Origin: a bacterium
Lineage (GTDB): Bacteria; Zhuqueibacterota; Zhuqueibacteria; Residuimicrobiales; Krinioviventaceae
Length of the DNA: 64,000 nt
Assembly: GCA_963693055.1 (NCBI GenBank)
Contig: OY843751.1
Location: forward strand, 3,424,001 to 3,488,000
Reading direction: 5' to 3'
Positions 34,054 through 64,000 of the stretch are shown in pieces (position 1 is the stretch's first letter; each line of letters opens with the position of its first letter). The position numbers and the translations under genes were made by a program. The notes under the pieces were generated by a model, which worked only from the letters and a program-made list of their open reading frames with translations, was not told the DNA's origin and did not search any database.

Positions 34054-34075
34054 TCCCTTTTTCTTTCATACCATA

Positions 34076-36930: not shown

Positions 36931-36937
36931 ATACACA

Positions 36938-38776
36938 TTACTTTAACTCTTTTATCATCACATTGCGGTAATCCACGCCGGTACCATGGGATTGCATGCC
37001 GATATGCCCTTTGCGGGGACGCTCACTGAGCGGCAGATAGTCACCGTTAGCGATGGTGACCTCGTCCATGTTGGCAGAATTGATCTGTACGCCATTGAGC
37101 ATGATGGTTACTTGCGGGCCGTTGCAGGTGATCTCGTACACATTCCATTCGCTGGGAGGATTTGTATGTCCTTTCTCCGCGGCCACCTGGTAATAGATGC
37201 CGCCGGTATATTGCGCGGGTTTGAGATCATTGTATTTTTCCGCATTATCGTCCAACACCTGAATCTCCATACCCACATGCGCGGGATCACCTTTTTCAGG
37301 GTAACGGATACCTACACCACTGTTGCCTCCTTCGGGTATGCGCCATTCCAGGTGCAGCACAAAATTATCATATTCTTTTTTGGTAGTAAGCCAACCGCCT
37401 TTTTCCGCAATACAGGATAAAACTCCATTCTCATACTTCCAGGATTCGATCTTGCCATCCTTGGCATACCAGCCGGACAGGTCCTTGCCATTGAACAATG
37501 ATACAAAATCATCATCAGGTACCGGACTGCTGCTGACCAGATTTTCCGCTTCGTTCATATAAATCTCGGCGGTATTTTCTCCCAGGCTGGTGCGGGTGAT
37601 ATAATTATAGCGTTCAAAACTGTTAAAATCCACTTTGGCAATCATGTATCCAAAAGCGTCGTTGGTAAGTCCAAACAGCAACGGCTGTTTGGTATTCATG
37701 TGGCGTTTTACATAAAATCCCACATTGGGCAGGGCCTCACCGGGTATAGTAAGTACCTGTGCCGTACCAATATTCACCAGGTTCAGTGTTGTACTGATGG
37801 ATTTATCCTCAGACAATGCATACCCCAGCGGAGAGATTTGCAGTATCATTTGCATCATTTTCGACTCTATAGGAAAACGAATGGTTTTGGATGTACAATA
37901 CAATCCGGGATCATTTTGTACAGGTGCATTTTCCACAATGCGCAAAGCTTCGTCCGCCATGAGGTTACCAATGCGGATACATTCTTCCCAGGTATTGTTC
38001 TCTTTGCCGTCATCTCTACGAACATCCGCGGTTACCATGCCTCCCTGTGCACTGTTCATAAACAGGGCAATACCGCCGCCCTCTGCCTCAATGCGGTCAT
38101 ACATGGGTCCGCACAGATCGGGTGAAAGAATACCTCGTTCTGAGCCCAGCACCTCCGGGTGTGTGGCATAATTGATCAGCGTTGCAATGGGTTTGCCTGC
38201 GTTTGCGCCGTCTTTAGCAATGGCCTGTATCACACCCATACGGGGATCATAAAGCCGGGGTGCATATGCGTTAAAAGCAATTTTACCTTTGGCGTCATCA
38301 ACAGCAATTTTTAGAGATGCGGGTTCCAGATTGTTCACCGCCTCATTCACTGCATCTGCAATCTGCTTCACACACCAGTCCAGATACTCGAGGTCCGCAT
38401 GGTGCTGACCATTCTGGTCCGGAAATCCATACGCATCGGGAGCACTATGGGTATGTGTCACACCAATGATCACATTCTCCGGCGCAATATCTTTGATCAG
38501 TGCCCGGGATTTATCTCCCAATTTTGCGGGCCAGCCGAGATTATCAATGCTGACTATAGCAATCCGGGTTGTGCCGTCATCCAGCACCAACGCACGGGCA
38601 AACAAGTCTCCCTTTTTTTCAGTCACAGGATTAGGCGTACCTACACCACCGGAAACCGGCAGCAAAGGGTCAGGGGTTATGACACGCAAAGCCGCACCCG
38701 CCTTGAATGCTCCCGCCCAAACAGATGTTGACATTGCAAAAACGCAAAAGATGAATATGATTATAGATTTTTTCAT
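36938..38776 (-). CDS. Neutral/alkaline ceramidase-fold amidohydrolase fused to C-terminal DUF1080 (3-keto-glycoside hydratase-like) domain
   Basis: Signal peptide; THTHSAPD, NYATHPE, IPGE, LTND.FGY; C-terminal SLFNGKDLSGW, GNSGV, EIQVLD, GHIGMQSHG; start ATG 38776. Confidence 0.82.
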   Translation of the reverse strand: MKKSIIIFIFCVFAMSTSVWAGAFKAGAALRVITPDPLLPVSGGVGTPNPVTEKKGDLFARALVLDDGTTRIAIVSIDNLGWPAKLGDKSRALIKDIAPENVIIGVTHTHSAPDAYGFPDQNGQHHADLEYLDWCVKQIADAVNEAVNNLEPASLKIAVDDAKGKIAFNAYAPRLYDPRMGVIQAIAKDGANAGKPIATLINYATHPEVLGSERGILSPDLCGPMYDRIEAEGGGIALFMNSAQGGMVTADVRRDDGKENNTWEECIRIGNLMADEALRIVENAPVQNDPGLYCTSKTIRFPIESKMMQMILQISPLGYALSEDKSISTTLNLVNIGTAQVLTIPGEALPNVGFYVKRHMNTKQPLLFGLTNDAFGYMIAKVDFNSFERYNYITRTSLGENTAEIYMNEAENLVSSSPVPDDDFVSLFNGKDLSGWYAKDGKIESWKYENGVLSCIAEKGGWLTTKKEYDNFVLHLEWRIPEGGNSGVGIRYPEKGDPAHVGMEIQVLDDNAEKYNDLKPAQYTGGIYYQVAAEKGHTNPPSEWNVYEITCNGPQVTIMLNGVQINSANMDEVTIANGDYLPLSERPRKGHIGMQSHGTGVDYRNVMIKELK

Positions 38777-38791
38777 AAGATATACTCCCAA

Positions 38792-41773
38792 CTACTTTTT
38801 AAACTCTACTTTTTTCATGGCAATGATTTTGACAGGGCCCAACAATCCGGACGCCGGCAATGGGCTAAATCCATATTCCTGTACAGTGTCAGTCAGTGCA
38901 TTACCAAAACGCTTCTGTAGTTCCTGAGGAACCGGTGGAGATTTTTCCCACGTGGAAACTTTGTTTATGTTGGTATTGGTAACAAGAAATGTAAGATGGT
39001 TCTTTCCATTTTTCAAGAGACCTGTCACATCCAACTGCATCCCAGTCATCCAACAGGTTCCGGCATCCTTATCATTGACTTTTATGTCGGCTATGCTCCC
39101 CACCTTGCCAGTATCAAGGATTAAAACAACATCCTTTTGCAGGTACGTATCGGGTAAGGTAAAATCAATATCATACCTGCCGGTCCCGCTGAAATGACAG
39201 GTCAGGGAGTCATCAGTCCAGGATTTTAATACCGGCAGGTTCTGTTCTACTCGCTCGAAATCACTGCTTTCAAGTACCAGCTTCCATTCGCCGGAAATCA
39301 TAAATGGAGAAGGTACACTGTCTATTTCTTTTTTAACAAATTTCTGTCCACTGTTTTCAACTTTGGCGTAAAACATACCATTTTCTTTAGCAAGTGCAGA
39401 GACTGAATTTTTATCAACTGATACAATTTCATCAAAATTGGTTTCACTAACAAAAGATACGCCTTTATCGGGACCGAACACCAGTACAATAGATTCCCAG
39501 GGGGATAATTTCAGCGGAACTTTGATACCGTCTCGAGTTTCACTAAACTGGAAATAACGTTGTACAGAGCCGGTAAAAGGGTCCCAATCAAACACATCTT
39601 TATTATGGGTACGGAATGTTATAGGCACAGAACTGGGGGTGTTTTGCGTATTGGTGACAAAATAAACATCACAATCATCCACTTTGCGGTGGATAAATCC
39701 CAATCCATTATTCCGACGCAGTCCCTCTTGAGCGAAATCAATTCCAAAATCCGGTGCAATATGCGAACGGATGGTATTTACAAAAGGATCAAGCGGACTA
39801 CTGCGAAGGTCCCACCAGATCTTTCGATCAATGACATTTTTAATAAAATAGGCTTTACCTTTGCCATAATCTACTGTTCCCACCTCATCCCTGCGAAAAG
39901 GTTCTTTAAACATTTCAGAAATTATCTGCTGCACCTTTGCATCGTTTACCTCGTAATTGGTAAATCCGGTTGAACTGTCAGGTACACGATCACAGGCAAT
40001 CACCACACCACCACTTTTAACATAATCCTGAATACGTAAAAGTGTCTGTAATGGCAATGCTTTAATATTAGGTAACAGTAACACTTTGTATTTCATATTT
40101 CGAACACGAATCTGTCCGTTTTCAAATTTAGCGAAATTCTGCAGAGCGTCATCATTGATCAAATCAAAATCATATCCGTTTGAGACCAATAAAAATCCCA
40201 ATTCATCCCAGTCAAATTCACGTGTCCATTTACGGGGATTCAAAGCGTCCAAAGTCCATTGATTTGCCAGAGGCGAATACACTGCAATATCCGGGCTGAA
40301 ATCACCCTGTCTCAGCAGAAACGAGCAGCGTGCAATGTACTGAGAAAGTAGTGGATAATAGGGCCACATGAGATTAGACGGATTGAGCTGAACGGCCCAG
40401 CCTGTACGTCGTGAAGGCGCCAGGTTGCGGTCAGGTGAATAACAAAAGCCATGATTATAGAATTTTGTTGCTCCGGCACGTAAAAATCCGTCAGTAGCAA
40501 TTTTCAATTCTTCCAAAGTGGCACGATACCGTTCCCAATGCAGAAAAGTATAGGCCTCCAACGAAATGACATCCCGCCCATACAAGTGAGCACCAGAGGA
40601 AACATATTTTTTGGGTCCAATCCTATTATCGAACCAGCCCTGCGAATCCTTTTCACCAGGAGTAATTTCCATTTCCGGAATATGTGTTGCACCTGCTGCC
40701 TGCAGATTGTCTGTAGCAAAGCCATAGGTCTGCACCCGTCCTTTGATGCCATTATTCTCACACCAGGTCATAAAGGTTTCGAAAAACGTCTCCATCCCTA
40801 CATGATGCAAAAACTCATTCACATCATAACGGATCTTGGGTGAAATATCACCAACCTGCCACCATACAGCCGGTAAATACGGAACCAGATCGTAACCCTT
40901 GAATTCCTCAAATTTGCTCAACAGATTATCAGACCAGTATAAACCACTTGCCAGATTAGGCAGCTCAAAGCTGTCTGCAAAAAATGAATCTACTGTTTTT
41001 CCAAATTCATCACCAAATGCCTCTTTGAAACGATTACCCAGATCGTCACAATAGCGTTGCATTGCATCTTTGTTAAAATGATCTACCGCATTGGCATGAC
41101 CATTCTTTGCCAGCCAGAAGCACATAATCCGCCATCTTCCATCAGGAACCTGCCAGATCAGTTTGCCGTCTTTAACGTTATCTGTTATGACTGTCAGTGT
41201 GGGTTCCTGAATCACACTTTCTACAACTTTAGCGGCAACAACTGCAAGCAATTTTTCGGAACCGTTCAAATTGGTTTCGTACAATTCCCAGGAACGCTTG
41301 GTTTTCATCAAGGTATCGGGTAATACATCATTAAATTTAACAGGCCCCACAACATCTACAAATGTGGGTATAAGATCTTTGGAGTTATCATCCTCGGGGA
41401 CCCATTCACCACCAATAATCCATCCGGGACCGCCAAAATTGAACGATATTTCCATTCCTAACCGTTTGGCCTCCATAACAGCATGCCTTGCCATTTCCAG
41501 AAATTCCTCAGACATGTAGGGAATGTTGCCCTTTTCATAATAAGGCTGCATGGTAATCTGCTCCACACCCCGGATGCCTACACCGCGCATCTGTTCCAAC
41601 TCCCAGGTTATTTCTTTTTTGGTAACTGCATTTCCGGGCCACCACCAGCGCGTATGCGGCCAGCAATCCATGGGTGGATTCTTGAACTGCTCTTCTAACG
41701 CTTGCAGAGGTCTTGCCTCTATTGTTCCGGAAAGTATCCATAATACAACAAGCATAAAAATTGAGCGTTTCAT
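38792..41773 (-). CDS. Glycoside hydrolase family 106 (alpha-L-rhamnosidase-like)
   Basis: P..RWWWPGN, GIRGVE, FFADSFE, SSGAHLYG...LEAYT, C-terminal FSGTGRY...SGLLGPV. Confidence 0.85.
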   Translation of the reverse strand: MKRSIFMLVVLWILSGTIEARPLQALEEQFKNPPMDCWPHTRWWWPGNAVTKKEITWELEQMRGVGIRGVEQITMQPYYEKGNIPYMSEEFLEMARHAVMEAKRLGMEISFNFGGPGWIIGGEWVPEDDNSKDLIPTFVDVVGPVKFNDVLPDTLMKTKRSWELYETNLNGSEKLLAVVAAKVVESVIQEPTLTVITDNVKDGKLIWQVPDGRWRIMCFWLAKNGHANAVDHFNKDAMQRYCDDLGNRFKEAFGDEFGKTVDSFFADSFELPNLASGLYWSDNLLSKFEEFKGYDLVPYLPAVWWQVGDISPKIRYDVNEFLHHVGMETFFETFMTWCENNGIKGRVQTYGFATDNLQAAGATHIPEMEITPGEKDSQGWFDNRIGPKKYVSSGAHLYGRDVISLEAYTFLHWERYRATLEELKIATDGFLRAGATKFYNHGFCYSPDRNLAPSRRTGWAVQLNPSNLMWPYYPLLSQYIARCSFLLRQGDFSPDIAVYSPLANQWTLDALNPRKWTREFDWDELGFLLVSNGYDFDLINDDALQNFAKFENGQIRVRNMKYKVLLLPNIKALPLQTLLRIQDYVKSGGVVIACDRVPDSSTGFTNYEVNDAKVQQIISEMFKEPFRRDEVGTVDYGKGKAYFIKNVIDRKIWWDLRSSPLDPFVNTIRSHIAPDFGIDFAQEGLRRNNGLGFIHRKVDDCDVYFVTNTQNTPSSVPITFRTHNKDVFDWDPFTGSVQRYFQFSETRDGIKVPLKLSPWESIVLVFGPDKGVSFVSETNFDEIVSVDKNSVSALAKENGMFYAKVENSGQKFVKKEIDSVPSPFMISGEWKLVLESSDFERVEQNLPVLKSWTDDSLTCHFSGTGRYDIDFTLPDTYLQKDVVLILDTGKVGSIADIKVNDKDAGTCWMTGMQLDVTGLLKNGKNHLTFLVTNTNINKVSTWEKSPPVPQELQKRFGNALTDTVQEYGFSPLPASGLLGPVKIIAMKKVEFKK

Positions 41774-41788
41774 GGTAGTAATGCTCCT

Positions 41789-43501
41789 TTAATAGATTTC
41801 AACATTATCAAGCGGTGAACCATCATCACGGGTTATTCGGAGATACAATCCCCAGTTCAATTCTGAATTACATACTTTGATCAACACCTTGTTCTCGCCC
41901 TTGTTCAAGCGGACAGACAGAATATCAGAATCCGGGGCGGCAGAACGTTCAATATTCTTAGCAAACAACTTTTGACCGTTAAACCACAATGTTGCCGTAT
42001 CATTGGTACCCAGTCGTATCTGAGCATCCTGTTCAATTGTGCTGTTCACAGATATGTACGCATAAGCACAAACCCATTCGGTAGGTTGAAAATGTTTTCT
42101 AAAATCAAGATATCCACTGACCGGGTCAACCTTGCATTGCTGCCATTTCAATGCTTTATCTTTTACCGTATATTCCGCATGGATATCTGTTTTTGTTTCT
42201 GGTGGAAATTCAGTATCAAAATTATTACAGGATTCACATCCAAAGGGACCCACAATATGGAATTCTGATACAAATCCCAATTCCGCATTAAACGCATCAA
42301 CTTGACGGGTTTTTGCAAGCTCGACAAGATTTTGAATTGCAGGAGTAGAGATCCATTTTTCTTTAACAACATTGAGGTATTGATCAAATTGGGGGTCCAA
42401 AGGCAATACGGAATTACCCACCTTGCCATATTTTTCAACATCTGCCTGATCAAACTGCCACCAGGTGGCACCATGCCCATAGATCCAGCAATATTTTTTA
42501 CTGCCCAGTAGAATACCTGCATACTGATTTTTAAAATCCTCAACGGAAAAACGACTGCTCTTGTCCGCATAAGAGCCAACCAAAGAATCACCAAAGGTCT
42601 CTTTTTTACCGGACCACCCTAAAAACTCGCCATCTTTATCAACGATCTCGCGGTAATAGCCTAGCGGCCAGCCCGCCAAAGAAACACCACACGTTTTCAT
42701 CCAGTAATCCTGAGCTTTGGGGCTAATCGCATCCAAAATTTTTGATTCCAGTTCGAATGCATAATGTAAAAGTCCAAAGGTGCTGACCATGTCATAAGAC
42801 AATTCAGTCAAAACAAACAACCCACCGGGAGCCTGTTGTTCTGCCATTGCCTCAAGCCAACCGGTAAACAGTGCCTTTGCTATAGGGCCATAAAAGGTAA
42901 TACTTTCCGGAAGGGTGAGATAAACCATATCCGGATATTCTTTCAACATGGCGTTGACCATTTCATATCCGCGTTTGTTAGCGGCAGTTATCAAGTCTTG
43001 TTGAGAATATCCTTTATAATCATACCCCTGCCAATTAAACTGATATTGCTCGTTAACATATTCAATATCCAGGGATATCCCTTTACAGCCGGATAGTTTT
43101 GCAAAGCGAGCAGCCTCGGCAAAATTCTTTATAATTCCTTCCCATGCAGCATTATCGGTCCAAAGGGGTACATGTTTATAAAAAGCGATTTTGATAAAAT
43201 TATCGGTAATACCTGCCTTTCGACACATATCGTTACAGTTTTTTATCCGCTGAAATGTAGCATCAGATTCATTTCGACTCGATGGATCACCATCCTGTGC
43301 CCAGATATCATCACCCCAGTTGGCCATGATCCCGGACAACAAGAACCCATCAAATCCATTCTGCTTCCATTCAACCGCTGTGTCAGCCAGATATTCAGGT
43401 GAAATAGGACTAAACAGCAGGGTTTTGGGTAAATCCTGCTGTTTATTGTTTGTACAACATAAAAACATGGATACTGCGATGAAAACAAAAAGCTTTTTCA
43501 T
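41789..43501 (-). CDS. Lipoprotein with putative TIM-barrel glycoside hydrolase-like domain and C-terminal PA14-like beta domain
   Basis: Lipobox FLCC; KGISLDIEY acidic motif; C-terminal VGPF..CAYAY..GTND...WFNG..GENKVLIKV. Confidence 0.6.
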   Translation of the reverse strand: MKKLFVFIAVSMFLCCTNNKQQDLPKTLLFSPISPEYLADTAVEWKQNGFDGFLLSGIMANWGDDIWAQDGDPSSRNESDATFQRIKNCNDMCRKAGITDNFIKIAFYKHVPLWTDNAAWEGIIKNFAEAARFAKLSGCKGISLDIEYVNEQYQFNWQGYDYKGYSQQDLITAANKRGYEMVNAMLKEYPDMVYLTLPESITFYGPIAKALFTGWLEAMAEQQAPGGLFVLTELSYDMVSTFGLLHYAFELESKILDAISPKAQDYWMKTCGVSLAGWPLGYYREIVDKDGEFLGWSGKKETFGDSLVGSYADKSSRFSVEDFKNQYAGILLGSKKYCWIYGHGATWWQFDQADVEKYGKVGNSVLPLDPQFDQYLNVVKEKWISTPAIQNLVELAKTRQVDAFNAELGFVSEFHIVGPFGCESCNNFDTEFPPETKTDIHAEYTVKDKALKWQQCKVDPVSGYLDFRKHFQPTEWVCAYAYISVNSTIEQDAQIRLGTNDTATLWFNGQKLFAKNIERSAAPDSDILSVRLNKGENKVLIKVCNSELNWGLYLRITRDDGSPLDNVEIY

Positions 43502-43535
43502 TTCTCAATCCTGTTTTAATAATTTATTTGTTTAT

Positions 43536-43934
43536 TTATTTATTCAACCACTGCACAAACTCGAGCACATTATTGTCCGGATCTGTTATATACAGCCAGG
43601 TTACCATATCTGGAATCAGCATGGGGCCTTTAAGGATATCTATTTGAGCAGATTTCAACTTTTCCACCAGTGCTTCCAGATTATCCGTCCCAATGGCCAT
43701 ATGCGGACTGTACGGCGGTTTAATTTCATTTTCAGGCGCCGGTATGGGGTTATTTTTCTCGTCCAGCAGTTGCAATAACTCAATGTTGCATCCATCGAGT
43801 TTTAAAAAAGCAAATGCCTCGTGGTGCTCCTCATCCACGGTTTTGGACATGAGCTCCAGTCCCAGTTTTTCCTGATAAAATTTTATCGAAACATCCAGAT
43901 CAGAGACCTGAAACGCGAAATGATCAGCAAACAT
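43536..43934 (-). CDS. VOC family protein (glyoxalase/epimerase fold)
   Basis: DHFAFQV.DL, IELL, HMAI, DPDNNVLE metal-ligand pattern. Confidence 0.88.
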   Translation of the reverse strand: MFADHFAFQVSDLDVSIKFYQEKLGLELMSKTVDEEHHEAFAFLKLDGCNIELLQLLDEKNNPIPAPENEIKPPYSPHMAIGTDNLEALVEKLKSAQIDILKGPMLIPDMVTWLYITDPDNNVLEFVQWLNK

Positions 43935-43950
43935 TACGTTCCTCCAGTTC

Positions 43951-46515
43951 TTATTCTATACTGTCCATAAGATCATGAAATTCTTTACTACGCAATTGAT
44001 GGCGTTCAGCATAATGGGTTATACCTTCCCGTTCAACAATTTCACAAAAACGGGCATAGCTTCCATCATGTTTTGATTGTTGTGGAAAATATAAACATTT
44101 GAGATACAATATTGGTAACCGGGCCACTTCTACACGTTCCAAAACATCCTGGTTGTCTGCAATTCTTTCAGCACGATCGAAAATTTCACCGGCTTGGATG
44201 ATAAAAGATTCCGTAAATATCTTGTCTTCCGGTTTCATAAATAAATGGATATGCGTTAAAGGTGTTACAAGCCCCTGCAGTAAATCAAAATATTCACGAA
44301 TATACTGTCCACTGCGCCCATAATAACCATAGATAAAGTCATTTACCACTGTTTCCACATCACAATCGGGGTTCCAAAGTAATTTAGAGATTAAATAGGC
44401 TCTTAGCTCGGCAAACTCACCGCCGCGACTTTGATATGCCGCCTGTTCCATAATCCCTATTGCGTTATTCTCTTGAAAAGTCTTTATATTTTCCTGCAAT
44501 ACTCCAAAGTTGGGATACGGCATAATATAATGACCAAAATTCACAACATAATCCCAAATATACATATGCGGCGCAATAGCAGACCAGCCTTGCAGATCAT
44601 CAATAAAAGACTGGTTTAACGGACAGGATTTAAAATCATGTGAAAAACAACATTCAATACTGCAAAGACGGATAACCACATTTTCCCGCGGCTTTATATT
44701 TTTACAGGGCTTGCGGGTATATTGATATGCAAGTGTACCTACATATTTATCTGGAAATTCTTTTTCAATCTCTTTTGCAATCTTGTTCACAAACCAGATT
44801 AACGGCCCGGCTTCACTTTCTTCTTTCCGTGCGATTTTCTGGCAATTTTCACATTGACATGGATTTTGCCAGTCGTTCTGTGACACGGAATAAATTAAAC
44901 AATCGGGATTGTCAAGCATGGCCTGTTTGAGGCGCTTTGTAACAATCTTGAAGACATCAGGATTAGTGAGACACAGCTGCGCATGATCATGAACACGTTT
45001 GCCATCAATCAAACTGTAATATTCCGGGTGCTCGTCATAAAATTCTGTTGGCGGCATAAAGCGGTAAAAAGTATGTACGGCCCAGTATCCTTCCACTCCA
45101 CCAGGTTGTTTACGGCTGTTCATGGCCCCGTTCACACGGTTCCGGGCCGCCCAAACCGGATCAAAGGCTTCATAATAAAAATCGTTACGTACACGTATGC
45201 CCGGGGATTCATGGTTATAAAAATAAGTGAATTCAAATTTATCTTTTTCAGGAACATTTGTTACCTGCGGGGTATACCAGCGGAGCCCAAGCTCATTTTC
45301 CAGAAAATCAAATACTCCGTACATAGTACCCCGTTGACTGCCGCCCCAAATTAAAATATGATTACCAATATTTTTATAGGTAAAGGCTTCTGACATTGCA
45401 TCTGGTTTGTGTATATCATTCGGAAACATCTCCAACACATCCGGATGACATCCAACAATGATGGACGGGATTGACTCTTTAAACTGATTTACAATAGGGA
45501 AAAAAGCACCACTGACTTTGTTGAGCCAATGCTGAAGATCACGTGCAGCCCATTGCTCGGACTCTGACGCGTTAACATCCACAACAATAGCATACTTTGA
45601 TTTGCGGTTGTTGAAAAGCTCAAAAATCTGACGATTACCCGCACTAAATAAATGGAATTCCTGGAATGACTGACCATCTATAAACTTTGCCGTAATTGAC
45701 AAATCGAATTCTCCGTATCGTTCTGTCGGCACAGAAAGGGCCAGATCCTGTTCGGTCCCTAATTTGCCTTGCCATATAATTGAATCCGGAGCAAATTTGG
45801 GAGTAATTGTAACAAGATTTTCCTTAAACAATGAGGCTAAATTGCGTTTATCATATTTAAAATGCAGAACCGGTTTAGCATCCAAAGTCAAAACAGTAAA
45901 AAAAGAACCCGCCCCTAAATCCGAATCAAAAGATAGAAATCGGGTACAAAAAGCCCATACATTGCCCAACTCTTCAATCTTGAGTAGTAAAGTATTTCTC
46001 CCCTTTTTTATAACCACTGGGACCAGACCTTCATCAGGATTGAGTCCACCGGGTCTTGCTTCGTCCCAAACCAACATACCGTTAAACCAGACCCTTCCGC
46101 CATCATTACAGGCAACGGACAAATAGCATATCTGGTCCTTTTCCGCAATGATTTCTCTAAACGCATAAGCGCAAACATTTTCATCAGTAGAAACAAAATC
46201 ATCCAGAACAATGACAGAATCCGGCGCAGCAATCTCTTTAAAAACCAGCTTTTCTCCATTTACAGAGATCATTGTCCCCGCTGTTAAAACAGGATTTTCT
46301 TCTCCTCCGATACCTGCGAGGTAATCGGTTTCAAATCCAGGGATGTGCTGTTGGTCAAGTTCATTATCTTTGGGAGACTCTAAATGAATAGGCCCGCAAA
46401 CAGTCCATTCTTTCATCCACTCTCCCATTTCAAACTCGTATTCGGTAGCAAAAAGATTAACTGATAAAAATACAAATAATATTAATATCAGAAAATTGGG
46501 TTTCGATCTCATCAT
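43951..46515 (-). CDS. DUF4838 domain protein (GH-like), paralog 1
   Basis: Signal peptide, N-terminal PA14-like domain, RGTMYGV..FLE..LG.RWY, HTF, HPEYY, QLCLTNP, SQND...CQC..C, LAYQY, IWDY; start near 46515/46512. Confidence 0.82.
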   Translation of the reverse strand: MMRSKPNFLILILFVFLSVNLFATEYEFEMGEWMKEWTVCGPIHLESPKDNELDQQHIPGFETDYLAGIGGEENPVLTAGTMISVNGEKLVFKEIAAPDSVIVLDDFVSTDENVCAYAFREIIAEKDQICYLSVACNDGGRVWFNGMLVWDEARPGGLNPDEGLVPVVIKKGRNTLLLKIEELGNVWAFCTRFLSFDSDLGAGSFFTVLTLDAKPVLHFKYDKRNLASLFKENLVTITPKFAPDSIIWQGKLGTEQDLALSVPTERYGEFDLSITAKFIDGQSFQEFHLFSAGNRQIFELFNNRKSKYAIVVDVNASESEQWAARDLQHWLNKVSGAFFPIVNQFKESIPSIIVGCHPDVLEMFPNDIHKPDAMSEAFTYKNIGNHILIWGGSQRGTMYGVFDFLENELGLRWYTPQVTNVPEKDKFEFTYFYNHESPGIRVRNDFYYEAFDPVWAARNRVNGAMNSRKQPGGVEGYWAVHTFYRFMPPTEFYDEHPEYYSLIDGKRVHDHAQLCLTNPDVFKIVTKRLKQAMLDNPDCLIYSVSQNDWQNPCQCENCQKIARKEESEAGPLIWFVNKIAKEIEKEFPDKYVGTLAYQYTRKPCKNIKPRENVVIRLCSIECCFSHDFKSCPLNQSFIDDLQGWSAIAPHMYIWDYVVNFGHYIMPYPNFGVLQENIKTFQENNAIGIMEQAAYQSRGGEFAELRAYLISKLLWNPDCDVETVVNDFIYGYYGRSGQYIREYFDLLQGLVTPLTHIHLFMKPEDKIFTESFIIQAGEIFDRAERIADNQDVLERVEVARLPILYLKCLYFPQQSKHDGSYARFCEIVEREGITHYAERHQLRSKEFHDLMDSIE

Positions 46516-46569
46516 CACTCCAAAAAAATTTATAATTTTCACTTTTAATATTGAGATTATTAATTGGAC

Positions 46570-49122: not shown

Positions 49123-49145
49123 TTTGACTCCGGTGTTTGGGTAAA

Positions 49146-49177
49146 AGCCGGGACAGGGGTAGAACATAGTCCCGGCT
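49146..49177 (-). other. Intergenic stem-loop inside the operon
   Basis: AGCCGGGAC-N14-GTCCCGGCT between the DUF1080 stop and the DUF4838 RBS. Confidence 0.5.
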
Positions 49178-49185
49178 GGGTAATA

Positions 49186-49779: not shown

Positions 49780-49818
49780 TGTCCTTCTCCTTGTAAAAAG
49801 TAATGTAACAGGTTATTA

Positions 49819-50895: not shown

Positions 50896-50898
50896 AAA

Positions 50899-51816: not shown

Positions 51817-51825
51817 TTCATCGAT

Positions 51826-54153: not shown

Positions 54154-54162
54154 TTTCTTGAT

Positions 54163-55790: not shown

Positions 55791-55806
55791 ACTACCTACC
55801 TCTTTT

Positions 55807-56571: not shown

Positions 56572-56577
56572 GTTTCC

Positions 56578-57657
56578 TCAATCCGCTTTCCACGGTTCAA
56601 AAACAACTTTGAATGCAGCTTTGGGTTGTTGTAATAACAATTCAAACGCTTGCTCAAATTCATCCAGAGGGAATGTATGGGTTATCCATTTACTTACATC
56701 CAGTTTACCGGTATTGAGTAATTGATAAGCTCTAACCAGATCAGAATTAAACGCATTGGACGATGTGGTCAATGTTCGTTCCGAACCAAGAGCCATGGCA
56801 TTCATGTTTACCGGTGTATCATGTACTGCCATATTAACCCAGGTACCTCCTTCCTCAAGCAAGGGTAAAAGATTTTGAATCATTTCACCGGAACCAACCG
56901 AATCAAATATCGCGGCAAACTTTATATTTTTCTCAAGCAGATATTCGTTTAGATCAACTGTTGCAGGATCAATCACTGTAAACTGTGGATAATTTGCCAA
57001 AACGTTTTGAGCAATGGGTGACGGATCAGAAATATAGACGGGAACATTGCTCAACGTTTCAACAACCTGAGCAATACCCAAACCAGCAGGGCCTCCTCCT
57101 ATGCACAAAACGTTCGCGCCGTCATAAATCCGGACCCGTTCAGAAACATGTACCGCAACGCACAAAATATCTGCCATTGCAGCCGATGCAAAATCCAGGT
57201 CATCGTCCAATGGATGCAAGAGATCAGCCCAACCCAAACAATACTCGGCATATCCACCGGGGAAATATTCCATATCTCCCCACCCCTGGGCATGGCCAAT
57301 ATGGATCATATCCCGGCATAAATTCTCACGACCGGTTGTACAAAAGTTACATTTACCGCACACCCGATAAGACTGAACGCCAACCCGTTTTCCAAGCAAA
57401 TGTTCATATTCTGACGAATTAACAGCCTCAACAACTCCTGAAAATTCATGTCCCATCACCATATTGGGAGGATTGTCTACATGTTTACCCAGTGTATGCA
57501 GTGCCCATGGATTTTCTCCCGCCCAGTAACGCAGGTCACTTCCACAGATACCACAAGCTTCCACCCGGATCAGAACATGGTTCTTTTCTGTCATAACCGG
57601 TTTGGGAATATCCAATAGTTGGAGTGTTTTAGGTTTTGTTAATACAACTGCTTGCAT
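56578..57657 (-). CDS. Zn-dependent (MDR) sugar/polyol dehydrogenase
   Basis: CGICGSD, GHE, CxxCxxC(7)C structural Zn site, GGGPAG; start ATG 57657 with AAGGA RBS. Confidence 0.9.
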   Translation of the reverse strand: MQAVVLTKPKTLQLLDIPKPVMTEKNHVLIRVEACGICGSDLRYWAGENPWALHTLGKHVDNPPNMVMGHEFSGVVEAVNSSEYEHLLGKRVGVQSYRVCGKCNFCTTGRENLCRDMIHIGHAQGWGDMEYFPGGYAEYCLGWADLLHPLDDDLDFASAAMADILCVAVHVSERVRIYDGANVLCIGGGPAGLGIAQVVETLSNVPVYISDPSPIAQNVLANYPQFTVIDPATVDLNEYLLEKNIKFAAIFDSVGSGEMIQNLLPLLEEGGTWVNMAVHDTPVNMNAMALGSERTLTTSSNAFNSDLVRAYQLLNTGKLDVSKWITHTFPLDEFEQAFELLLQQPKAAFKVVFEPWKAD

Positions 57658-57665
57658 ATTATCCT

Positions 57666-60098
57666 TTATTCTGTTACAGCGGCATCTATAAAGCCATGAT
57701 AACGTCCCATCCAATATGCCAATAACCAGGATGCACCATCATCTTCGTTTTTACCACTTTTGCCACTGTCAGGGTAATAGGGATTTTTGTTCCATTTATT
57801 AAAATTCGTTTCATCCGCCGGGAGTACAGTAATTAACTGTGGTCGGTCAAACCGGTCCTTACGGGGATTCAAAATTACATCAGCACGGTTACTGTTGATC
57901 ATTTCCCACTGGCGTCTATCAGTGGGGATCTGTCTCAAATTGGTAACCGCACTTTTTATGTCAACAAAATCAAGATCAATTGTAGCTGCAGCAAAATAGA
58001 AAAAAGCGGAACCATCGGTCCACAAGGTTTTATAATGTCTACGCACAGCGCGTTGTAATGCGTTTCTCGCTTTATCCCCATGCTCTAACTGAAGTATGGG
58101 GTACAGGGCACAAAATCCCAATTGATTATCTGAATGATTATTCTCATCAGGAAAGACTTTTTTCTCCAAAAGCACATTACCCAGATAACCATGTTCCTTA
58201 ATCAATTTATCATAATGTTCCTTGTACTTGAGATCACCGGTAATATAATAGGTTACTTTGAGAAACGACAAGATTTGCGCGGCATTTAAACCATTTTCAA
58301 TATAATGATCCGGATCATCATTCAGGTTTTCGGGATTCCAGAATCCCCAGCGGGTTCGTTCACCATCCCAGTCAATCAACTGGTAATTATGGTCCACAAT
58401 ATAATCCATAAGGATTGATATTTGCTCTATTATCAATTCCCGTTCTTCCGGAATGAACCGTGCAATATGTTCCCAATAGGCATAAAAAGCAAAGAAATGA
58501 CCATCAATTTCATCACTGGACGTATCACTTTTCCAGATCATTTTACCGTCTGGTGTTACCCGCCATTGCGGGCTTTTGTTTTTCTTTTCAGAAACAGGCA
58601 GCACACTGCGTGCAACCAAACCGGGTATACCGGAAGCATTCTGCAGCATGATCATAGCATGCATGCTCTTTTTTGCAGATTCAAGATAATCGATCCGGTC
58701 AGTTACCGCATATGCCATAGACATGGCAACTACATGATAAGATGTCCATAAACCATCATTATCATTATCAATGATAACATGTCTAGTAGGATTCTCAGCA
58801 TCATCAAATGTACAAGCGGCTACAAGTCCCAGGCGGCGATGATATTTGTTCAATCGTTTTTCAATAATCTCTGCTTTTTGTTCCAATGTTCGTTCAACAG
58901 CACCCAGTTTACTGATTCCTTTGGATGTTTTAAAATAGACCGGCATTCCATTAGGTGGTATAGCAATATCGTTAACAATATTATCTATTAAATAACGCTT
59001 GCCGGCACGATAATACCATTGACGATCCGAAACATAAGGTTTGTACAGAATAGCGCCTTCCGATGTACCGATCCAGATTTGGTCACTCTTATCAATAGCC
59101 AGGCAATTTACAGATTCAACCGGCAAACCCTGTTTCCCCCGGATTATCGACCAGGTACCATCAGCATCCAACCGTCCCAGGCCCGCTCGTGTTCCAACCC
59201 ACAATGTTCCCTTAGAGTCAAAAGCTAGATCTGAAATAAAAGAAGCCGGGGGACCGTCAATACCATAGCTGTTATGACGAACTGCCGTTTTAGAACCAGC
59301 CTTAACAAAATATAACCCCATAGTGGTACCAAACCAGGTAATATCTCCGTTTTGCGCAACAGATGTAATCTGGTTATTTTCCACAGGTGGATCAAAAGTA
59401 AACTTTTGAACATTCTGCATTTGCTGAAACAGCTTTTCGGCTAGTTTGTATTCGTCTTTGTCCAGAGATTGGCGGACATGCTGTACAAAAGGTGTATCTT
59501 TAACAGGGATGTATTCTGTTGCATAGGTCAAAAGCTCAAGATCATCTTCATAATCCAGGGCTGGTACGAGATTAGGTAATATATAATCACCATCAATTTC
59601 AAAAGGTTGACGAATCCATGCTTCATTGACAATAACGTGCTTCATTCCTTTATCTGTATTATAAATCAGGTTAATTTTTTTATCAACGGTTTGTAACAGT
59701 GAATAGAACGCATTACAGCCTTCCGGTTCCAACTCGCGATATAGCGGCCACGACTTTCCGCCATTGGGTGAAAACCACAAGCTCAACTGGTCCTTTCCGG
59801 TAAAACTACCGGAATTTATTGCCATAACAACATTACCAGATTCCAGTTTTATGATATCCCATGCAGCGCCTGCTATCACTTTACGCTGTAATCCCATATA
59901 TTCATCATAATCCGGAGACTTTTCGACAGCACCCAGATTAATCTTGACCAGAGAGCCGTCAGACATTTCTACAAGAACAGGAGTTTGGTCTTGATTCACA
60001 TTAACCATATTAACTTTATAATACGGCTGCGCCAGTGATACCAGCGCACCCGATATTATCATATAAAATAGTAAATAAAAACGAACGAACCTGAACAT
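57666..60098 (-). CDS. Secreted chimeric protein: BNR fragment, Reg_prop-type propeller repeats and putative (alpha/alpha)6 catalytic barrel
   Basis: Signal peptide; SPNGGKSW Asp-box; DSKGTLWVGT and DKSDQIWIGT repeats; DNDNDGLWTS, WKSDTSSDE, TRWGFW, YWMGRY. Confidence 0.65.
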   Translation of the reverse strand: MFRFVRFYLLFYMIISGALVSLAQPYYKVNMVNVNQDQTPVLVEMSDGSLVKINLGAVEKSPDYDEYMGLQRKVIAGAAWDIIKLESGNVVMAINSGSFTGKDQLSLWFSPNGGKSWPLYRELEPEGCNAFYSLLQTVDKKINLIYNTDKGMKHVIVNEAWIRQPFEIDGDYILPNLVPALDYEDDLELLTYATEYIPVKDTPFVQHVRQSLDKDEYKLAEKLFQQMQNVQKFTFDPPVENNQITSVAQNGDITWFGTTMGLYFVKAGSKTAVRHNSYGIDGPPASFISDLAFDSKGTLWVGTRAGLGRLDADGTWSIIRGKQGLPVESVNCLAIDKSDQIWIGTSEGAILYKPYVSDRQWYYRAGKRYLIDNIVNDIAIPPNGMPVYFKTSKGISKLGAVERTLEQKAEIIEKRLNKYHRRLGLVAACTFDDAENPTRHVIIDNDNDGLWTSYHVVAMSMAYAVTDRIDYLESAKKSMHAMIMLQNASGIPGLVARSVLPVSEKKNKSPQWRVTPDGKMIWKSDTSSDEIDGHFFAFYAYWEHIARFIPEERELIIEQISILMDYIVDHNYQLIDWDGERTRWGFWNPENLNDDPDHYIENGLNAAQILSFLKVTYYITGDLKYKEHYDKLIKEHGYLGNVLLEKKVFPDENNHSDNQLGFCALYPILQLEHGDKARNALQRAVRRHYKTLWTDGSAFFYFAAATIDLDFVDIKSAVTNLRQIPTDRRQWEMINSNRADVILNPRKDRFDRPQLITVLPADETNFNKWNKNPYYPDSGKSGKNEDDGASWLLAYWMGRYHGFIDAAVTE

Positions 60099-60108
60099 CT
60101 AGCTACCA

Positions 60109-63054
60109 TTATTTATTTTCAACTGATAATTTAAAATCCTGAAACTCTACCCAATAGGGTACCTTGTCACAGGAACCGCCGGCAAGCCCAATATCGATGG
60201 TTTCTTTCAAACCGGGCAGATCATTGGTATTGCGTTCACGGGTCCATGTTTTGCCATCCAGACTGACATAACCGGTAAAACTGTTGCCATGACGAATTAG
60301 CTTCAACCATACCGGGTATTTCACATCTTCGGGAAGATTGGCACTGCTCGCCTTGTGCATACAACCATCACCAAACTCGTCATAATTAATACCGGCACGC
60401 CCCGGCGTGGTAAACATGAGTACAGATCCTTTACTTCCCGGTTCAGTATCAAAACTTTTTGATATATCATTACGCGCGAACAATCCGGTTCTAAACCATT
60501 CATGGGTACGGTTGCCAAAGCCATTCACCTTGACTGTTGCAACAAAGTTACCTTTAACACCTTTAATATAGGCAGAAGCATATGAATCTTCAGCATGATA
60601 AAAATCCGATCCACTTGCTTCTATTTTAACCTTGTTTCCCTTTTTGTCTATATCCACTTTATAGGGAAAAGCCGTGCCTGAGCAATAAACCTTGAAATCC
60701 GATTTTTTAATCTTTACTGGTTGATGAGCAAAAACAGAGAGTTTCTTTTGAGGGCTGTTGCCAATTTGAACAGTATAATCCCCGGCCTTGGGTTCAAGTT
60801 CAAACTGCACAGAAACCGAGCTGTTTGCCTTTATATCAATCTGTTTTTCCTGCGCAGATTTACCATTCATTAACAAAACAGCTTTAACAGACTGATTCGT
60901 CCCGGTTTGATTAAATGCAGTTGAAGAAACAGTAATGATCTCTCCTTCAGGTATCAAATCATGATCAAGTGTCAGTTCTTTATAAACAACCGGTACATAA
61001 TCTCCCTGAACGTTGACAGATTGATACGGAGTATCTCCAATAGCAACACGATGTTCACCCGGTTCAAACAGACGTAATCCAAATTCTATAGTGCGTGTAT
61101 TGTTTTGTATTACCGGTATGGATTGCGTTTCATATACTTTTCCATCCAGATAAAGCTGTACAGGCATGATTCCAGTGGCTCCGGAATTGTGTACCTCCGC
61201 AGTGATTGTCAAAAAAGTTCCGGTTTCAATCGTACCTGACAGTTTGCTACCATTGGCTTGAATTAAAAGACCCTCTATATTGAATTCAGGTTCGCCTTCA
61301 ATAATTCCCTGTGGAGTGATTTCAGGAGCATCAATTACAAAATTATTACGATAAATATTATCAACCAAATTGGCTGCACAGAGTTTCATTTCACCTTGCT
61401 GTAAATTATAGAAAATATTCTCTTCCGATATCCAACCGGATGACATGTTATCAAACCAGAAACCTACATTGTCATTAAAGTAACCGGCAATTACATCGTG
61501 CACCAAATTTCTGCGAACTATTGAATCATAGGTCAAGCCGGTGGTTTTGATAGCCCCCGAATCATCCGCGTCTTTCTGTACCTGGTATAAATGATTATAC
61601 TCTACACGATATCCGCATTCAATAGATTCTTCAAGATTTCGCCAACCACCAACGGCAATTGCGTAACGACCGCGAGTATAACTGAGTTCATTATGGGATA
61701 TAGTAGTAAACTGTGTATTATTGGCAACAATATTTACACCACCACAATTGGTAATCACATTACGGGAAATGGTCGTTTCCCGGATTATGTCCCGCCAATC
61801 CATGGGGTGTGGATTTCCAATCACATGAATTACACCATTATCAATCATTTCAAATGAATTGTCCAGAATCTTTGTCAGGTAACAACCATCACCCAGAAAA
61901 ACTCCGGTTCCGGCAATTGCACTCAAACGGGATCCTACAAGTTCGCAGGAATGAGCATATTCAATAGAGACCGCCTTGCCCTTTTCAAGAGTAGATTCAA
62001 AGGTCAGGCCATAAATGCGCAAATTGCGAACAGGCTTGTCCGGTGTTCCTTTTATCACAAACAGTTCTTGGAGTTCGGGGACGACAAGGTGTGTCTGGTT
62101 CGGATTTACGCCATTTTCCGGGATATAACTGAGCTCATCTTGCTCTTTATCATAAAACCATTCTCCCGGAGCATTCAACAGTTCTTTGACATTTTCAACA
62201 TAAAAACGGGGCGGTACAATTACAATACCCGGTTGAGGTTTTTCGAGGGTGGCTACACCCTTTTTTACATCAATGCTTTTAATGGAATTTAATCCGGCAT
62301 GCCAACGCAGCAAGAGTTTGATACGGTTACCTTCCAGACCTTCCCAATCATCAAGATCACCTTTGCGGAAATAAAGCTCAGTATCTGTTTTGGAAATAAC
62401 GGGGGGGGTAAAATATTCTTTATCCGGTGTGCGGGCCAGTATTTGTTTGCGTCCGTCTGCAACAAGCATGTTTACAGAACCGTCTACTTTGGCTGTCCAT
62501 TGATCGCCTTTTTTACTCCAACCGGAAACCGGTTTACCGCCGGAAATAACAGGTTTTTCACCGGGATACGCAGCCCAGGTCACATAATGGTCTTTGAGTT
62601 TGTGATATTCAAATGCCCCTGTAGGAAGGTTTGTCTCAACTCTCTCTCCACCATCAAGAGGGCCGAAAACAACAGGGGCATTTAAAGTGTAAAATCCTTC
62701 ACGGATCAATACGAGTATGTCTTTGCCTTTTCCCAATTCATGAGGTGAACCAATCCAGCGTTTCTCCACAGGTTCATCTTTGGGAAAATAGACTTGCTTT
62801 TTTAAATCTCTTACAGCCTGCTGTGCGCGATTAATCGTTGCAAATGGGCCATCTGTTTTATTTGCATTAGGTTCTGCAAGTGTGCCGGACCAGGTATCGT
62901 TACCATCCGGAGATACATAAAAGTCTGCTGAGGTTTCGGTGTTGGAATACTGCTGCCATTTTTCACCACGTAGCAATTTACCATCTGCCAATGTTATAGA
63001 TGATAAACAAAAGAAAAGAAAAATCCAAACAATTTTAATTTGATTCCGTGTCAT
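60109..63054 (-). CDS. Right-handed beta-helix protein (GH141-like) with Ig/CARDB domains and ConA-like C-terminus
   Basis: FYVSPDGND.WSG...DGPFAT..RAQ, YPGEKPVISGG, PGEWFYD, DDSGAIK, FWFDN; C-terminal WLKLIRHGNSFTGYVS.DG. Confidence 0.75.
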   Translation of the reverse strand: MTRNQIKIVWIFLFFCLSSITLADGKLLRGEKWQQYSNTETSADFYVSPDGNDTWSGTLAEPNANKTDGPFATINRAQQAVRDLKKQVYFPKDEPVEKRWIGSPHELGKGKDILVLIREGFYTLNAPVVFGPLDGGERVETNLPTGAFEYHKLKDHYVTWAAYPGEKPVISGGKPVSGWSKKGDQWTAKVDGSVNMLVADGRKQILARTPDKEYFTPPVISKTDTELYFRKGDLDDWEGLEGNRIKLLLRWHAGLNSIKSIDVKKGVATLEKPQPGIVIVPPRFYVENVKELLNAPGEWFYDKEQDELSYIPENGVNPNQTHLVVPELQELFVIKGTPDKPVRNLRIYGLTFESTLEKGKAVSIEYAHSCELVGSRLSAIAGTGVFLGDGCYLTKILDNSFEMIDNGVIHVIGNPHPMDWRDIIRETTISRNVITNCGGVNIVANNTQFTTISHNELSYTRGRYAIAVGGWRNLEESIECGYRVEYNHLYQVQKDADDSGAIKTTGLTYDSIVRRNLVHDVIAGYFNDNVGFWFDNMSSGWISEENIFYNLQQGEMKLCAANLVDNIYRNNFVIDAPEITPQGIIEGEPEFNIEGLLIQANGSKLSGTIETGTFLTITAEVHNSGATGIMPVQLYLDGKVYETQSIPVIQNNTRTIEFGLRLFEPGEHRVAIGDTPYQSVNVQGDYVPVVYKELTLDHDLIPEGEIITVSSTAFNQTGTNQSVKAVLLMNGKSAQEKQIDIKANSSVSVQFELEPKAGDYTVQIGNSPQKKLSVFAHQPVKIKKSDFKVYCSGTAFPYKVDIDKKGNKVKIEASGSDFYHAEDSYASAYIKGVKGNFVATVKVNGFGNRTHEWFRTGLFARNDISKSFDTEPGSKGSVLMFTTPGRAGINYDEFGDGCMHKASSANLPEDVKYPVWLKLIRHGNSFTGYVSLDGKTWTRERNTNDLPGLKETIDIGLAGGSCDKVPYWVEFQDFKLSVENK

Positions 63055-63071
63055 TTTACACTCTCCAGATC

Positions 63072-64000
63072 TTAGTATTCATTTTTCACCCAACCTTCTG
63101 TGAACGTGACATGTTTAATTGTTTTTACATCATGGCTATACGTTGCATGTAACATTTCGTCCCGACTCTGAATCAATGCGGGGTAATCATAACGCCCTTT
63201 ATCCGATTTTTCAATTTGTTTTTTCCATTTCCAGGTACGCCCCTCATCATCAGACAGAGAGACCACCAGAGAATTTCTTTCTTCATCTGTATTGTCATTA
63301 TAGATCAACATTATATTGCCACTATTCAGGCGCAAAACCTGAATACCTGCTCCCGGATTCGGAAAATCAGTTTCTGTCACCGGTCCCCAGGTCAGGCCCA
63401 TATCTTTAGACTCGCTTTTACGAATACGGTCAATGCCCGAAGAATCCCGAAACCAGGCTACCAATGTTCCATCACGACGTTCCAATACGGTGGGTTGTTC
63501 AATCCCATATCCCAATGCAGGTTTTGAGAATTCCCAGGTATGTCCAGCATCCGAGGTCAATGCCATTGCTGCCAATCCAAATATTTCAGACGCCATGGGC
63601 AGCAATAACTTGCCATTAGACAACCTGACAGGGCTCGTACGGGTAGTCCACCCCAGTCGACGGGCAAGCTGGCTTTCTAATTTAGGTTGGGCTTTTTTAC
63701 GCATTTTTTGAAATTGTTGATTACTCTTGTTCTGTTCACACAACAGTTCAATGGTTTCATCTAAAGCATTAGGTATTATCGGCAAATCTTTTTGAACATA
63801 CCAGGTTATGGGGATACTAAGATAATCCGATGAAATTTTATACCGCAAAAAAGCAGTATCCCAGGGTTCCTCAGGTGCGCCCAAAAGTGTATAATAAAAT
63901 AACCACAAGCGTTCCTGCTCATCTATATACAAACATGGATTATTATCAGATAGCATCGGGGTATCGGCTAAAAGAAATGTTTCTGACCAATCAATTTCTC
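63072..64000 (-). CDS. BNR_2 (sialidase-like) propeller protein; partial, start lies beyond the right window edge
   Basis: Frame open past ATG 63956 (WSETFLLADTP..SDNNP); Asp-boxes SDAGHTW, SKDMGLTW, SDDEGRTW; EQP, YDYP. Confidence 0.85.
   Translation of the reverse strand, partial: EIDWSETFLLADTPMLSDNNPCLYIDEQERLWLFYYTLLGAPEEPWDTAFLRYKISSDYLSIPITWYVQKDLPIIPNALDETIELLCEQNKSNQQFQKMRKKAQPKLESQLARRLGWTTRTSPVRLSNGKLLLPMASEIFGLAAMALTSDAGHTWEFSKPALGYGIEQPTVLERRDGTLVAWFRDSSGIDRIRKSESKDMGLTWGPVTETDFPNPGAGIQVLRLNSGNIMLIYNDNTDEERNSLVVSLSDDEGRTWKWKKQIEKSDKGRYDYPALIQSRDEMLHATYSHDVKTIKHVTFTEGWVKNEY

Follow-up and report, generated by a model that had tools for sequence, protein, structure and literature searches.

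Gene order, domain content and a recurring palindrome suggest a polysaccharide-utilisation operon with distant uptake and control in a Zhuqueibacterota genome

How might a bacterium feed and control a large block of glycan-degrading enzymes that has no transporter or regulator beside it? This question is raised by a locus in a member of the Zhuqueibacterota (assembly GCA_963693055.1), whose 6.535-Mb genome (G000) is a single contig, OY843751.1. The window, i.e., the whole stretch of DNA analysed, comprises 64,000 nucleotides (G000:C1:3424001-3488000), and coordinates below are in its frame unless a genome or locus is named. From position 36938 to the window edge it is filled by 17 minus-strand open reading frames (ORFs), in which an initial annotation had seen at least 17 closely spaced genes for the breakdown of a rhamnose-containing, possibly acylated or methylated glycan. 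We consider it fairly probable that these genes belong to an operon encoding the enzymes of a split polysaccharide-utilisation system wired through LacI, with uptake and control supplied from distant loci. In the following, G001 is the congener of G000 and other G-numbers denote further genomes compared. One ORF of G087, assigned to the same class, is identical to protein P0015, whose source label reads 'candidate division KSB1 bacterium', and on this basis the phylum is likely KSB1.

Past the window edge the run continues with three more genes, encoding an 808-residue unclassified protein, a second BNR_2 protein and a secreted amidohydrolase, and in all comprises 20 genes (g1 to g20, Table 1) over 32.9 kb, bounded beyond g20 by a 206-bp gap and then an unrelated CNNM gene. 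Gaps between the longest ORFs of the run range from -122 to +39 bp; the three large overlaps disappear with the likelier starts, judged from the translations, of g12 (55790), g14 (57657) and g17 (64226). Compared with all one-strand runs with gaps of ≤100 bp among the 4972 predicted ORFs of the genome, this run ranks first by length and also by proteins with signal peptides (14 by a hydrophobicity heuristic, one of them an artefact, vs. 8 in the next run). By the same heuristic, 13 of the run proteins look exported (periplasmic or lipoprotein), with no type IX secretion system (T9SS) tail in their Pfam matches, and 7, with the start of g12 corrected, lack a signal peptide and look cytoplasmic, as many as the initial annotation had described as interleaved enzymes. 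A Pfam scan recovered the domains named there and, over all 20 genes, found no transporter, SusC/D, sulfatase, kinase or regulator domain, so that the absence first noted for the visible genes holds for the whole run. A scan of 34000-50000 for sigma-70 promoters and terminators gave chance-level results. It had been suggested that transporters and regulators be sought past 64 kb; none of the three genes found there has a domain of either kind, and candidates for both emerge in trans, through a palindrome.

This palindrome stands 26 nt before the start of g20, the first gene of the run, and has 8-bp arms round a LacI-type core, which we take to resemble operators of the LacI family; it is identical in G001. 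The 12-bp core (with one variable base) has 10 matches in the genome, six of them intergenic, intergenic sequence being 8.6% of the genome; 419 control palindromes averaged 0.13 intergenic matches and just one reached six. One intergenic site precedes a LacI gene (genome position 2453946) that heads a TonB-receptor operon at 2.455 Mb, one a receptor-like operon at 0.58 Mb, two a GWxTD and receptor operon at 2.83 Mb, and one a gene of the glucosamine-6-phosphate deaminase (nagB) family; a weaker site faces two metallophosphoesterase genes and a GDPD gene. The congener has six exact sites, at orthologous places. Farther afield, G097, from another order, has a site before its LacI ortholog (48%), and in G040 a variant palindrome precedes the LacI gene heading a g18-g17-g2 cluster; the best G000 match of that LacI is the self-sited one at 2453946 (43%, E 8e-97). 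Orthologs of receptor-operon genes (43-62%) adjoin orthologs of operon genes in G087, G097 and G098. Receptors and LacI regulator lie 0.66-2.9 Mb from the operon, and because the palindrome recurs before LacI, TonB-receptor operons and the nagB-family gene and is kept in the congener, uptake and control are probably exerted in trans. A repressor likely governs the operon, and its predicted binding site recurs ahead of distant uptake genes.

All 20 genes are present in the same order in G001, at 78-96% identity. Orthologs were searched individually for g2, g3, g6, g10, g14, g15, g16, g18 and g20, and for g9 in 41 genomes only; counts apply stated thresholds, include G000 and rest on the top 6-12 candidates scored per genome. 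Among 125 genomes of the class, matches numbered 15 for g2, 19 each for g6, g16 and g20, 17 for g18, 23 for g10, 33 for g3 (many via its accessory domain only) and 4 for g15, and g14 had 8 among 167 genomes of the phylum. For co-distribution, G000 and G001 were dropped and closer matches kept by hand (g6 ≥65%, g18 42%, g20 and g10 ~50%, g3 E ≤2e-117). Genes g2, g6, g16 and g18 then share genomes with Jaccard values of 0.55-0.85, vs. 0.08-0.20 with two outside glycosidases, and g2 and g18 are found in identical sets of genera (7 of 17); these comparisons are limited by kinship among the genomes, which makes them non-independent, and by the small number of controls (two). Local linkage recurs as well: g18-g17-g2 in G039, G040 and G073; g18-g17 near g6 in G004; g20-g2 in G097 and G098, with g16 about 20 kb off; g19-g7-g6 and g19-g16-g15-like modules in G003; g9-g2 in G002 and G012; g9-g8 in G010 and G021; and RhaT-UROD-g4-g2 in G080. 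Five class genomes contain the g14-g13 pair. Among 43 metagenome loci, many of them short and one matching the locus of G087, the pair is present in 7 of the 32 closest, and g11 joins it in 3. Conservation across relatives, which the initial annotation had proposed to check, thus ends with the congener for the whole cluster and extends farther as small shuffled modules and the four-gene co-distribution. Neighbourhoods in relatives also contain phosphoesterase, GH38, GH29 and GH20 genes (GH, glycoside hydrolase family). On other metagenome contigs (L165, L171), relatives of g14 adjoin L-arabinose isomerase or a UxuA-like dehydratase.

The view that GH106 was the only classifiable enzyme had to be revised, with g16 falling in GH141, g5/g6 in DUF4838 (GH163/GH185), and DUF1080 likewise being a described family. 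In g2, E270 aligns with the position that carries the Gln mutation of 5MWK, and E406 with the Glu of QAEGFT; their counterparts in BT0986 are, we presume, the catalytic E461 and E593. g2 is a GH106 protein with both catalytic Glu positions kept and a predicted alpha-L-rhamnosidase, and these residues, with the G080 module, strengthen the rhamnose part of the original proposal. The beta-helix of g16 is homologous to 5MQP (BT1002) and 9RX2 and keeps both catalytic Asp motifs: D498 aligns directly, and D535 has an exact counterpart in 9RX2; in 5MQP the latter is matched by motif, on the assumption of a chain offset of +5. It differs from BT1002 by low identity and added C-terminal domains. In GH141, D523 and D564 are essential, and the family is multifunctional and includes endo-fucanases (PMC12786026), so membership does not fix the substrate of g16. 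Like BT1035 (GH163) and Sp_0475 (GH185), g5 and g6 carry a full DUF4838 (model positions 1-324/325 of 325, 357-361 bits), but they have an extra N-terminal domain; a single-sequence PDB search with g6 gave no match. DUF4838 is the catalytic domain of both families and splits into many clusters (PMC10570127). DUF1080 has characterised 3-ketoglycoside hydrolase members (PMC9007349), and the operon holds no Gfo/Idh/MocA or LacA-type oxidase gene. An accessory domain, profiled from g3, g5, g6 and g20 themselves, is common to these four and occurs in 8 G000 proteins, 4 of them in the run.

For the prediction of new enzyme families there are real candidates: g3, g10, g15 and g18 remain unclassified, meaning here absent from Pfam, NCBIfam and PDB, CAZy itself not having been searched. 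The model of g10 (predicted local distance difference test, pLDDT, 84) matches 4C91 in Foldseek (E 2.5e-20) and the GH115 enzyme 4ZMH at Z 20.4 (root-mean-square deviation, rmsd, 4.1, 525 aligned, 11% identity). Scores of GH20/GH84 barrels differ from those of GH115 by no more than about 1 Z unit, and GH138 is also among the fold matches. As modelled, g10 shares the GH115 domain architecture and fold; unlike GH115 members, with which identity is 10-16%, its catalytic domain has no family Pfam match (none at E up to 1), a profile of 26 sequences finds none of the GH115 chains and matches others via the N-terminal domain only, and a single-sequence PDB search found nothing. Neither its profile nor that of g18 retrieves GH138. 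The two profiles are related (HHalign probability 96.8%), and the 20-sequence profile of g18 finds GH67 1GQI (E 1.2e-13) over the N-terminal and barrel regions; D363, invariant, faces the Asp of the GH67 GPIDFQ motif, D389, in the place of the second acid, is not conserved in relatives, and Pfam gives no GH67 middle or C-terminal domain match. For g3, without Pfam or NCBIfam match, the Atlas clusters are unnamed (score 0.95-0.97, one with 1686 members), with DUF4434 a weak lead (0.84).

The C-terminal 411 residues of g15 match no Pfam family above noise and were modelled as an (alpha/alpha)6 barrel (pLDDT 89) like those of six-hairpin enzymes (GH76, AGE epimerases, GH9, GH88/105). The best structural match is 7TEM (Z 18.9, rmsd 4.1, 310 aligned), followed closely by GH76 4V1R (Z 18.2), with no clear winner; identities of ≤14% and an rmsd of about 4 Å set it apart from these enzymes and leave hydrolase, lyase and epimerase indistinguishable. 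GH76 has an adjacent Asp-Asp catalytic pair; g15, compared by motif without superposition, has an invariant Asn447-Asp448 ahead of an early helix, and neither Pfam nor profile searches gave a GH76 match. Single-sequence and profile PDB searches matched via the propeller and BNR parts only, and the Atlas clusters for the barrel are all unnamed. At least 3412 of 7998 candidates scored are homologues of the barrel, often fused to a BNR propeller, and G000 has 7 other genes of the family. We judge g3, g10, the g15 barrel and g18 to be probable glycosidases outside catalogued families; a shared fold shows no activity. Invariant acids that are candidate active-site residues comprise D363 in g18, D274, D360, E385 and D417 in g10, and D448, E530, E601 and D657 in g15.

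Some further observations concern these families. The start of g15 (59600-60098) is a truncated BNR propeller remnant, complete in many homologues, including that of G087. One or two g10-family genes are convergent with a g15-family gene at G000:C1:266199-273444 (L291) and at L044, L046 and L064, a separate set kept in G000, G001, G076 and G080. Aldolase-like genes of DHDPS (dihydrodipicolinate synthase) type or HpcH-like, the latter label being presumptive, repeatedly adjoin g15- or g10-family genes (G000:C1:2153132-2157446; L104, L276).

Among the cytoplasmic enzymes, g9 has its best PDB match in L-2-keto-3-deoxyarabonate dehydratase, with an E value of only 4e-11. In the Azospirillum enzyme (L-2-keto-3-deoxyarabinonate dehydratase), part of a Weimberg pathway, the key residues are Gln143, Lys171, Glu173 and Glu200, Glu173 being unique in the superfamily (PMC9795676). 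Equivalents of the first three are kept without exception by all 12 sequences aligned (g9 and 11 relatives); unlike the Azospirillum enzyme, all 12 lack an equivalent of Glu200, the second base, their GGWA segment having no Glu in either register. Such dehydratases are highly substrate-specific (PMC13398020). Because three key residues are kept and Glu200 is missing, g9 is a related Schiff-base dehydratase-type enzyme and probably acts on a substrate other than L-2-keto-3-deoxyarabinonate. A role as aldolase or N-acetylneuraminate lyase was rejected, since Gln replaces the aldolase Tyr. O-demethylation by g8 was likewise rejected, since no corrinoid partner was found in the locus (none of the 7 B12-binding matches of the genome lies there); g8 scores 27 bits against the MtaA/CmuA cut-off of 235. 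Apart from this URO-D-fold gene nothing speaks for a methylated glycan, and for an acylated one the evidence consists of two amidohydrolase-type folds. At least two of the 11 URO-D-family matches of G000 lie in glycan clusters, and only one is near a B12-binding match.

Gene order, domains, two model folds, conserved catalytic residues and palindrome recurrence, all read directly, are the material from which we infer how the split system may work. An inducer would release the LacI protein (genome 2453946), TonB receptors encoded at genome 0.58, 2.455 and 2.83 Mb would import oligomers, the 13 enzymes predicted to be periplasmic or lipoproteins would take apart a complex glycan, and the 7 cytoplasmic ones would oxidise a sugar so released. 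Removal would be exo-acting, with rhamnose taken by g2, N-acylhexosamine by g5/g6, uronic acids by g10 and g18, and other residues by g16, g15, g3 and g17/g19, while g1 and g20 would strip N-acyl groups. In the cytoplasm g14/g13 would oxidise, g11 would open the lactone and g9 would dehydrate a 2-keto-3-deoxy sugar acid, in a non-phosphorylative route. The likeliest substrate class, offered tentatively, is a microbial surface glycan containing rhamnose, amino sugars and uronates. Our best guess at its sugars takes rhamnose from g2, N-acylhexosamine from g5/g6, nagB and two amidohydrolase folds, and uronate from g10 and g18; equally as a best guess, these sugars and the phosphoesterases, GH38, GH29 and GH20 of relatives fit a microbial surface glycan better than pectin.

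Several observations weigh against a split, LacI-wired system. The palindrome motif was picked post hoc, after the site had been seen, and G001 is close kin; in a scan of 42 loci, including four from G000 itself, matches outside genes were confined to the congener, and the site was absent before operon orthologs of more distant genomes. G040 has no exact copy, G097 has two, one of which is at or within an unrelated gene, as is the only copy in G012, and G000 has eight LacI genes. Full synteny is confined to G001, with shuffled modules elsewhere; orthologs lie on different contigs in the fragmented assemblies G076, G080 and G027, and in G040 and G097 most of them are separated. Jaccard values with g2 are 0.36-0.47 for g20, g3, g10 and g14, and 0 for g15. 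The g14/g13-g11-g9 route is incomplete because the operon has no recognisable gene for a sugar-acid dehydratase or a semialdehyde dehydrogenase, and a rhamnose-isomerase-like gene and RhaT sit elsewhere in G000. Separately, the LacI-type palindrome is absent before g18 in G004 and before a second KdsB-like gene in G000.

A rival reading is a genus-specific mosaic island, in which modules for unrelated glycans share one promoter and a general carbon or amino-sugar LacI with no single substrate. We regard this as unlikely but as the strongest competitor. The restriction of the whole order to G001, the rarity of g15 and g14 orthologs (4/125 and 8/167 genomes), the other gene sets (AraA, UxuA-like) around g9 and g14 relatives in other phyla, and the abundance of such genes in the genome (43 sulfatase matches, 7 other g15-family genes) all suit it. 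Less easily accommodated are the co-distribution of g2, g6, g16 and g18, not seen with control glycosidases, the pairwise linkage repeated in other genera, and the intergenic sites, of which six are few for a global regulator.

Improbable, in our judgement, is a system for a plant or algal pectin-like polymer (rhamnogalacturonan I/II type) as in described Bacteroides loci. g2 and g16 do match the B. thetaiotaomicron rhamnogalacturonan II structures 5MQM and 5MQP, and the corresponding locus reportedly contains GH106, GH141 and BNR proteins, yet g2 scores 321 in the BT4145 model, whose cut-off is 1300, and Pfam finds no GH28, GH105, GH78, GH2 catalytic or pectate lyase domain in the 20 genes. 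The appearance of GH138 among the g10 fold matches is countered by its absence from the g10 and g18 profile retrievals; g9 resembles an arabinose-pathway enzyme, but DUF4838 and nagB suggest amino sugars. GH33 sialidases carry an N-terminal FRIP arginine motif; g17 and g19 have three Asp boxes each, and their translations show a His-rich motif in its stead. Very improbable is a system for ulosonic-acid glycans (3-deoxy-D-manno-octulosonic acid, Kdo; sialic acids) in which the BNR proteins would act as sialidases and g9 would be the lyase, a reading invited by two BNR_2 genes, by fusions of BNR and g15 barrel in many homologues and by a second KdsB-like gene near g6, g18 or g14 orthologs in G004, G027, G040, G076 and G087, but opposed by the missing FRIP motif and the Gln of g9.

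The split system proposed here can be set beside better-known ones. Polysaccharide utilisation loci (PULs) and CAZyme gene clusters of Bacteroidota combine co-located glycosidases and catabolic enzymes with uptake by TonB receptors and control by a regulator that senses sugars. Ours likewise groups periplasmic glycosidases with cytoplasmic catabolic enzymes and has predicted TonB-receptor and regulator partners; it differs in that the locus lacks a susC/susD pair, receptors and regulator are linked to it by the shared palindrome only, and the whole G000 genome has no SusD match, in a search that detected the B. thetaiotaomicron positive control. The lack of SusC/D was accordingly rejected as a special feature of the locus, SusD being absent genome-wide. 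In its predicted mode of action the system resembles a PUL, but it is not a SusC/D locus. With the Azospirillum Weimberg pathway it shares the Gln/Lys/Glu trio of g9, and it departs from that pathway in having no IlvD/EDD or aldehyde dehydrogenase-type partners in the operon.

Table 1. Genes of the run and its upstream palindrome (window frame; positions above 64000 lie beyond the window edge).
Feature	Position	Strand	Description	Basis
g1	36938-38791	-	Secreted; ceramidase-like N-terminal domain and DUF1080 (3-keto-disaccharide hydrolase)	PF04734 below cut-off; PF06439 E 7e-49
g2	38792-41773	-	GH106 alpha-L-rhamnosidase-like	PF17132 E 2e-75; alignment with BT0986 5MQM/5MWK
g3	41789-43501	-	Lipoprotein; unclassified N-terminal domain and shared accessory domain	Pfam/NCBIfam negative; Atlas clusters
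g4	43536-43934	-	Cytoplasmic VOC/glyoxalase-fold protein	PF00903; ortholog adjoins GH106 in G080
g5	43951-46542	-	Secreted DUF4838 (GH163/GH185 superfamily), tandem duplicate of g6 (67%)	PF16126 full length
g6	46570-49167	-	Secreted DUF4838 protein	PF16126 E 9e-108
g7	49186-49779	-	Lipoprotein DUF1080	PF06439
g8	49819-50895	-	Cytoplasmic URO-D/MtaA-fold protein	PF01208 E 1e-9; far under MtaA cut-off
g9	50899-51816	-	DHDPS-family Schiff-base enzyme; Q136/K164/E166 are equivalents of dehydratase Gln143/Lys171/Glu173	PDB search, alignment
g10	51826-54153	-	Secreted unclassified protein, GH115-like architecture	Predicted model, Foldseek
g11	54163-54990	-	Metallo-beta-lactamase-fold hydrolase, UlaG-like, candidate lactonase	Pfam/NCBIfam
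g12	54987-55790	-	DUF362 protein, likelier start 55790	PF04015; 267-residue match in congener
g13	55807-56571	-	Short-chain (SDR) dehydrogenase	Pfam/NCBIfam; travels with g14
g14	56578-57657	-	Zinc-dependent dehydrogenase, likelier start 57657	Pfam/NCBIfam
g15	57666-60098	-	BNR remnant, Reg_prop repeats and unclassified (alpha/alpha)6 barrel	Pfam, predicted model
g16	60109-63054	-	GH141-type beta-helix, D498/D535, with CARDB and DUF1349-like domains	Pfam, PDB alignment
g17	63072-64000, cut by window edge; ORF to 64262	-	Secreted BNR_2 sialidase-like propeller	Pfam
g18	64228-66654	-	Secreted GH67-like unclassified protein, 808 residues	Profile match with 1GQI
g19	66667-67833	-	Second BNR_2 protein	Pfam
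g20	67860-69791	-	Secreted Amidohydro_2 and shared accessory domain, first gene of run	Pfam
LacI-type palindrome	69818-69837		26 nt before g20	Motif scan

Around the operon, two genes were rejected as members: g0 (35606-36760), on account of a 177-bp gap and its absence from G001, and a GH2 gene (30738-32987), whose distribution differs, its ortholog in G087 lying on the same contig as the g15 ortholog. g0 is a 384-residue secreted ORF without family match or paralogue, missing at the corresponding place in G001. Upstream of the CNNM gene stand four tandem paralogous 1000-residue PKD proteins with a FlgD/T9SS-like tail (L001:9160-19906, L002; 71160-83577), and on the plus strand at 24117-25037 a 306-residue ORF without Pfam match lies ahead of a hybrid kinase and a sigma-54 regulator. 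The second KdsB-like cytidylyltransferase recurs in glycan-catabolic clusters near g6, g18 and g14 orthologs (G000:C1:3701686-3705088; L134, L130-L131, L112, L194, L200), usually paired with a 394-396-residue protein without Pfam match that is 70% identical between genera; a housekeeping-type KdsB copy lies elsewhere, ahead of two further genes that we take to be pyrG-like and kdsA-like. With 43 sulfatase, 20 sodium:solute symporter and 11 URO-D-family matches, G000 is, by its predicted gene content, a glycan specialist.

Literature searches, whose coverage omits most subscription journals, found no relevant description of KSB1 glycan clusters and no published description of the g15 family, and the accessible part of a KSB1 genome survey (PMC9012183) does not cover SusD-free glycan uptake or degradation. 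Put at its boldest, and doubtfully, the locus may represent a SusD-free, regulon-wired KSB1 glycan system, its operon holding founders of four new glycosidase families (g3, g10, g18, g15 barrel) and feeding a new non-phosphorylative sugar-acid pathway (g14, g13, g11, g9) that would recycle microbial surface polysaccharides. What was a gene list from an uncultured phylum becomes a testable system with a named regulator, operator and receptors, and adds four large unclassified families for which folds were predicted or remote homology detected, and for which active-site residues can be proposed. An unusual dehydratase subfamily (g9) and a directly testable regulon are of further value, and enzymes for rare linkages of microbial and algal heteroglycans are scarce and useful.

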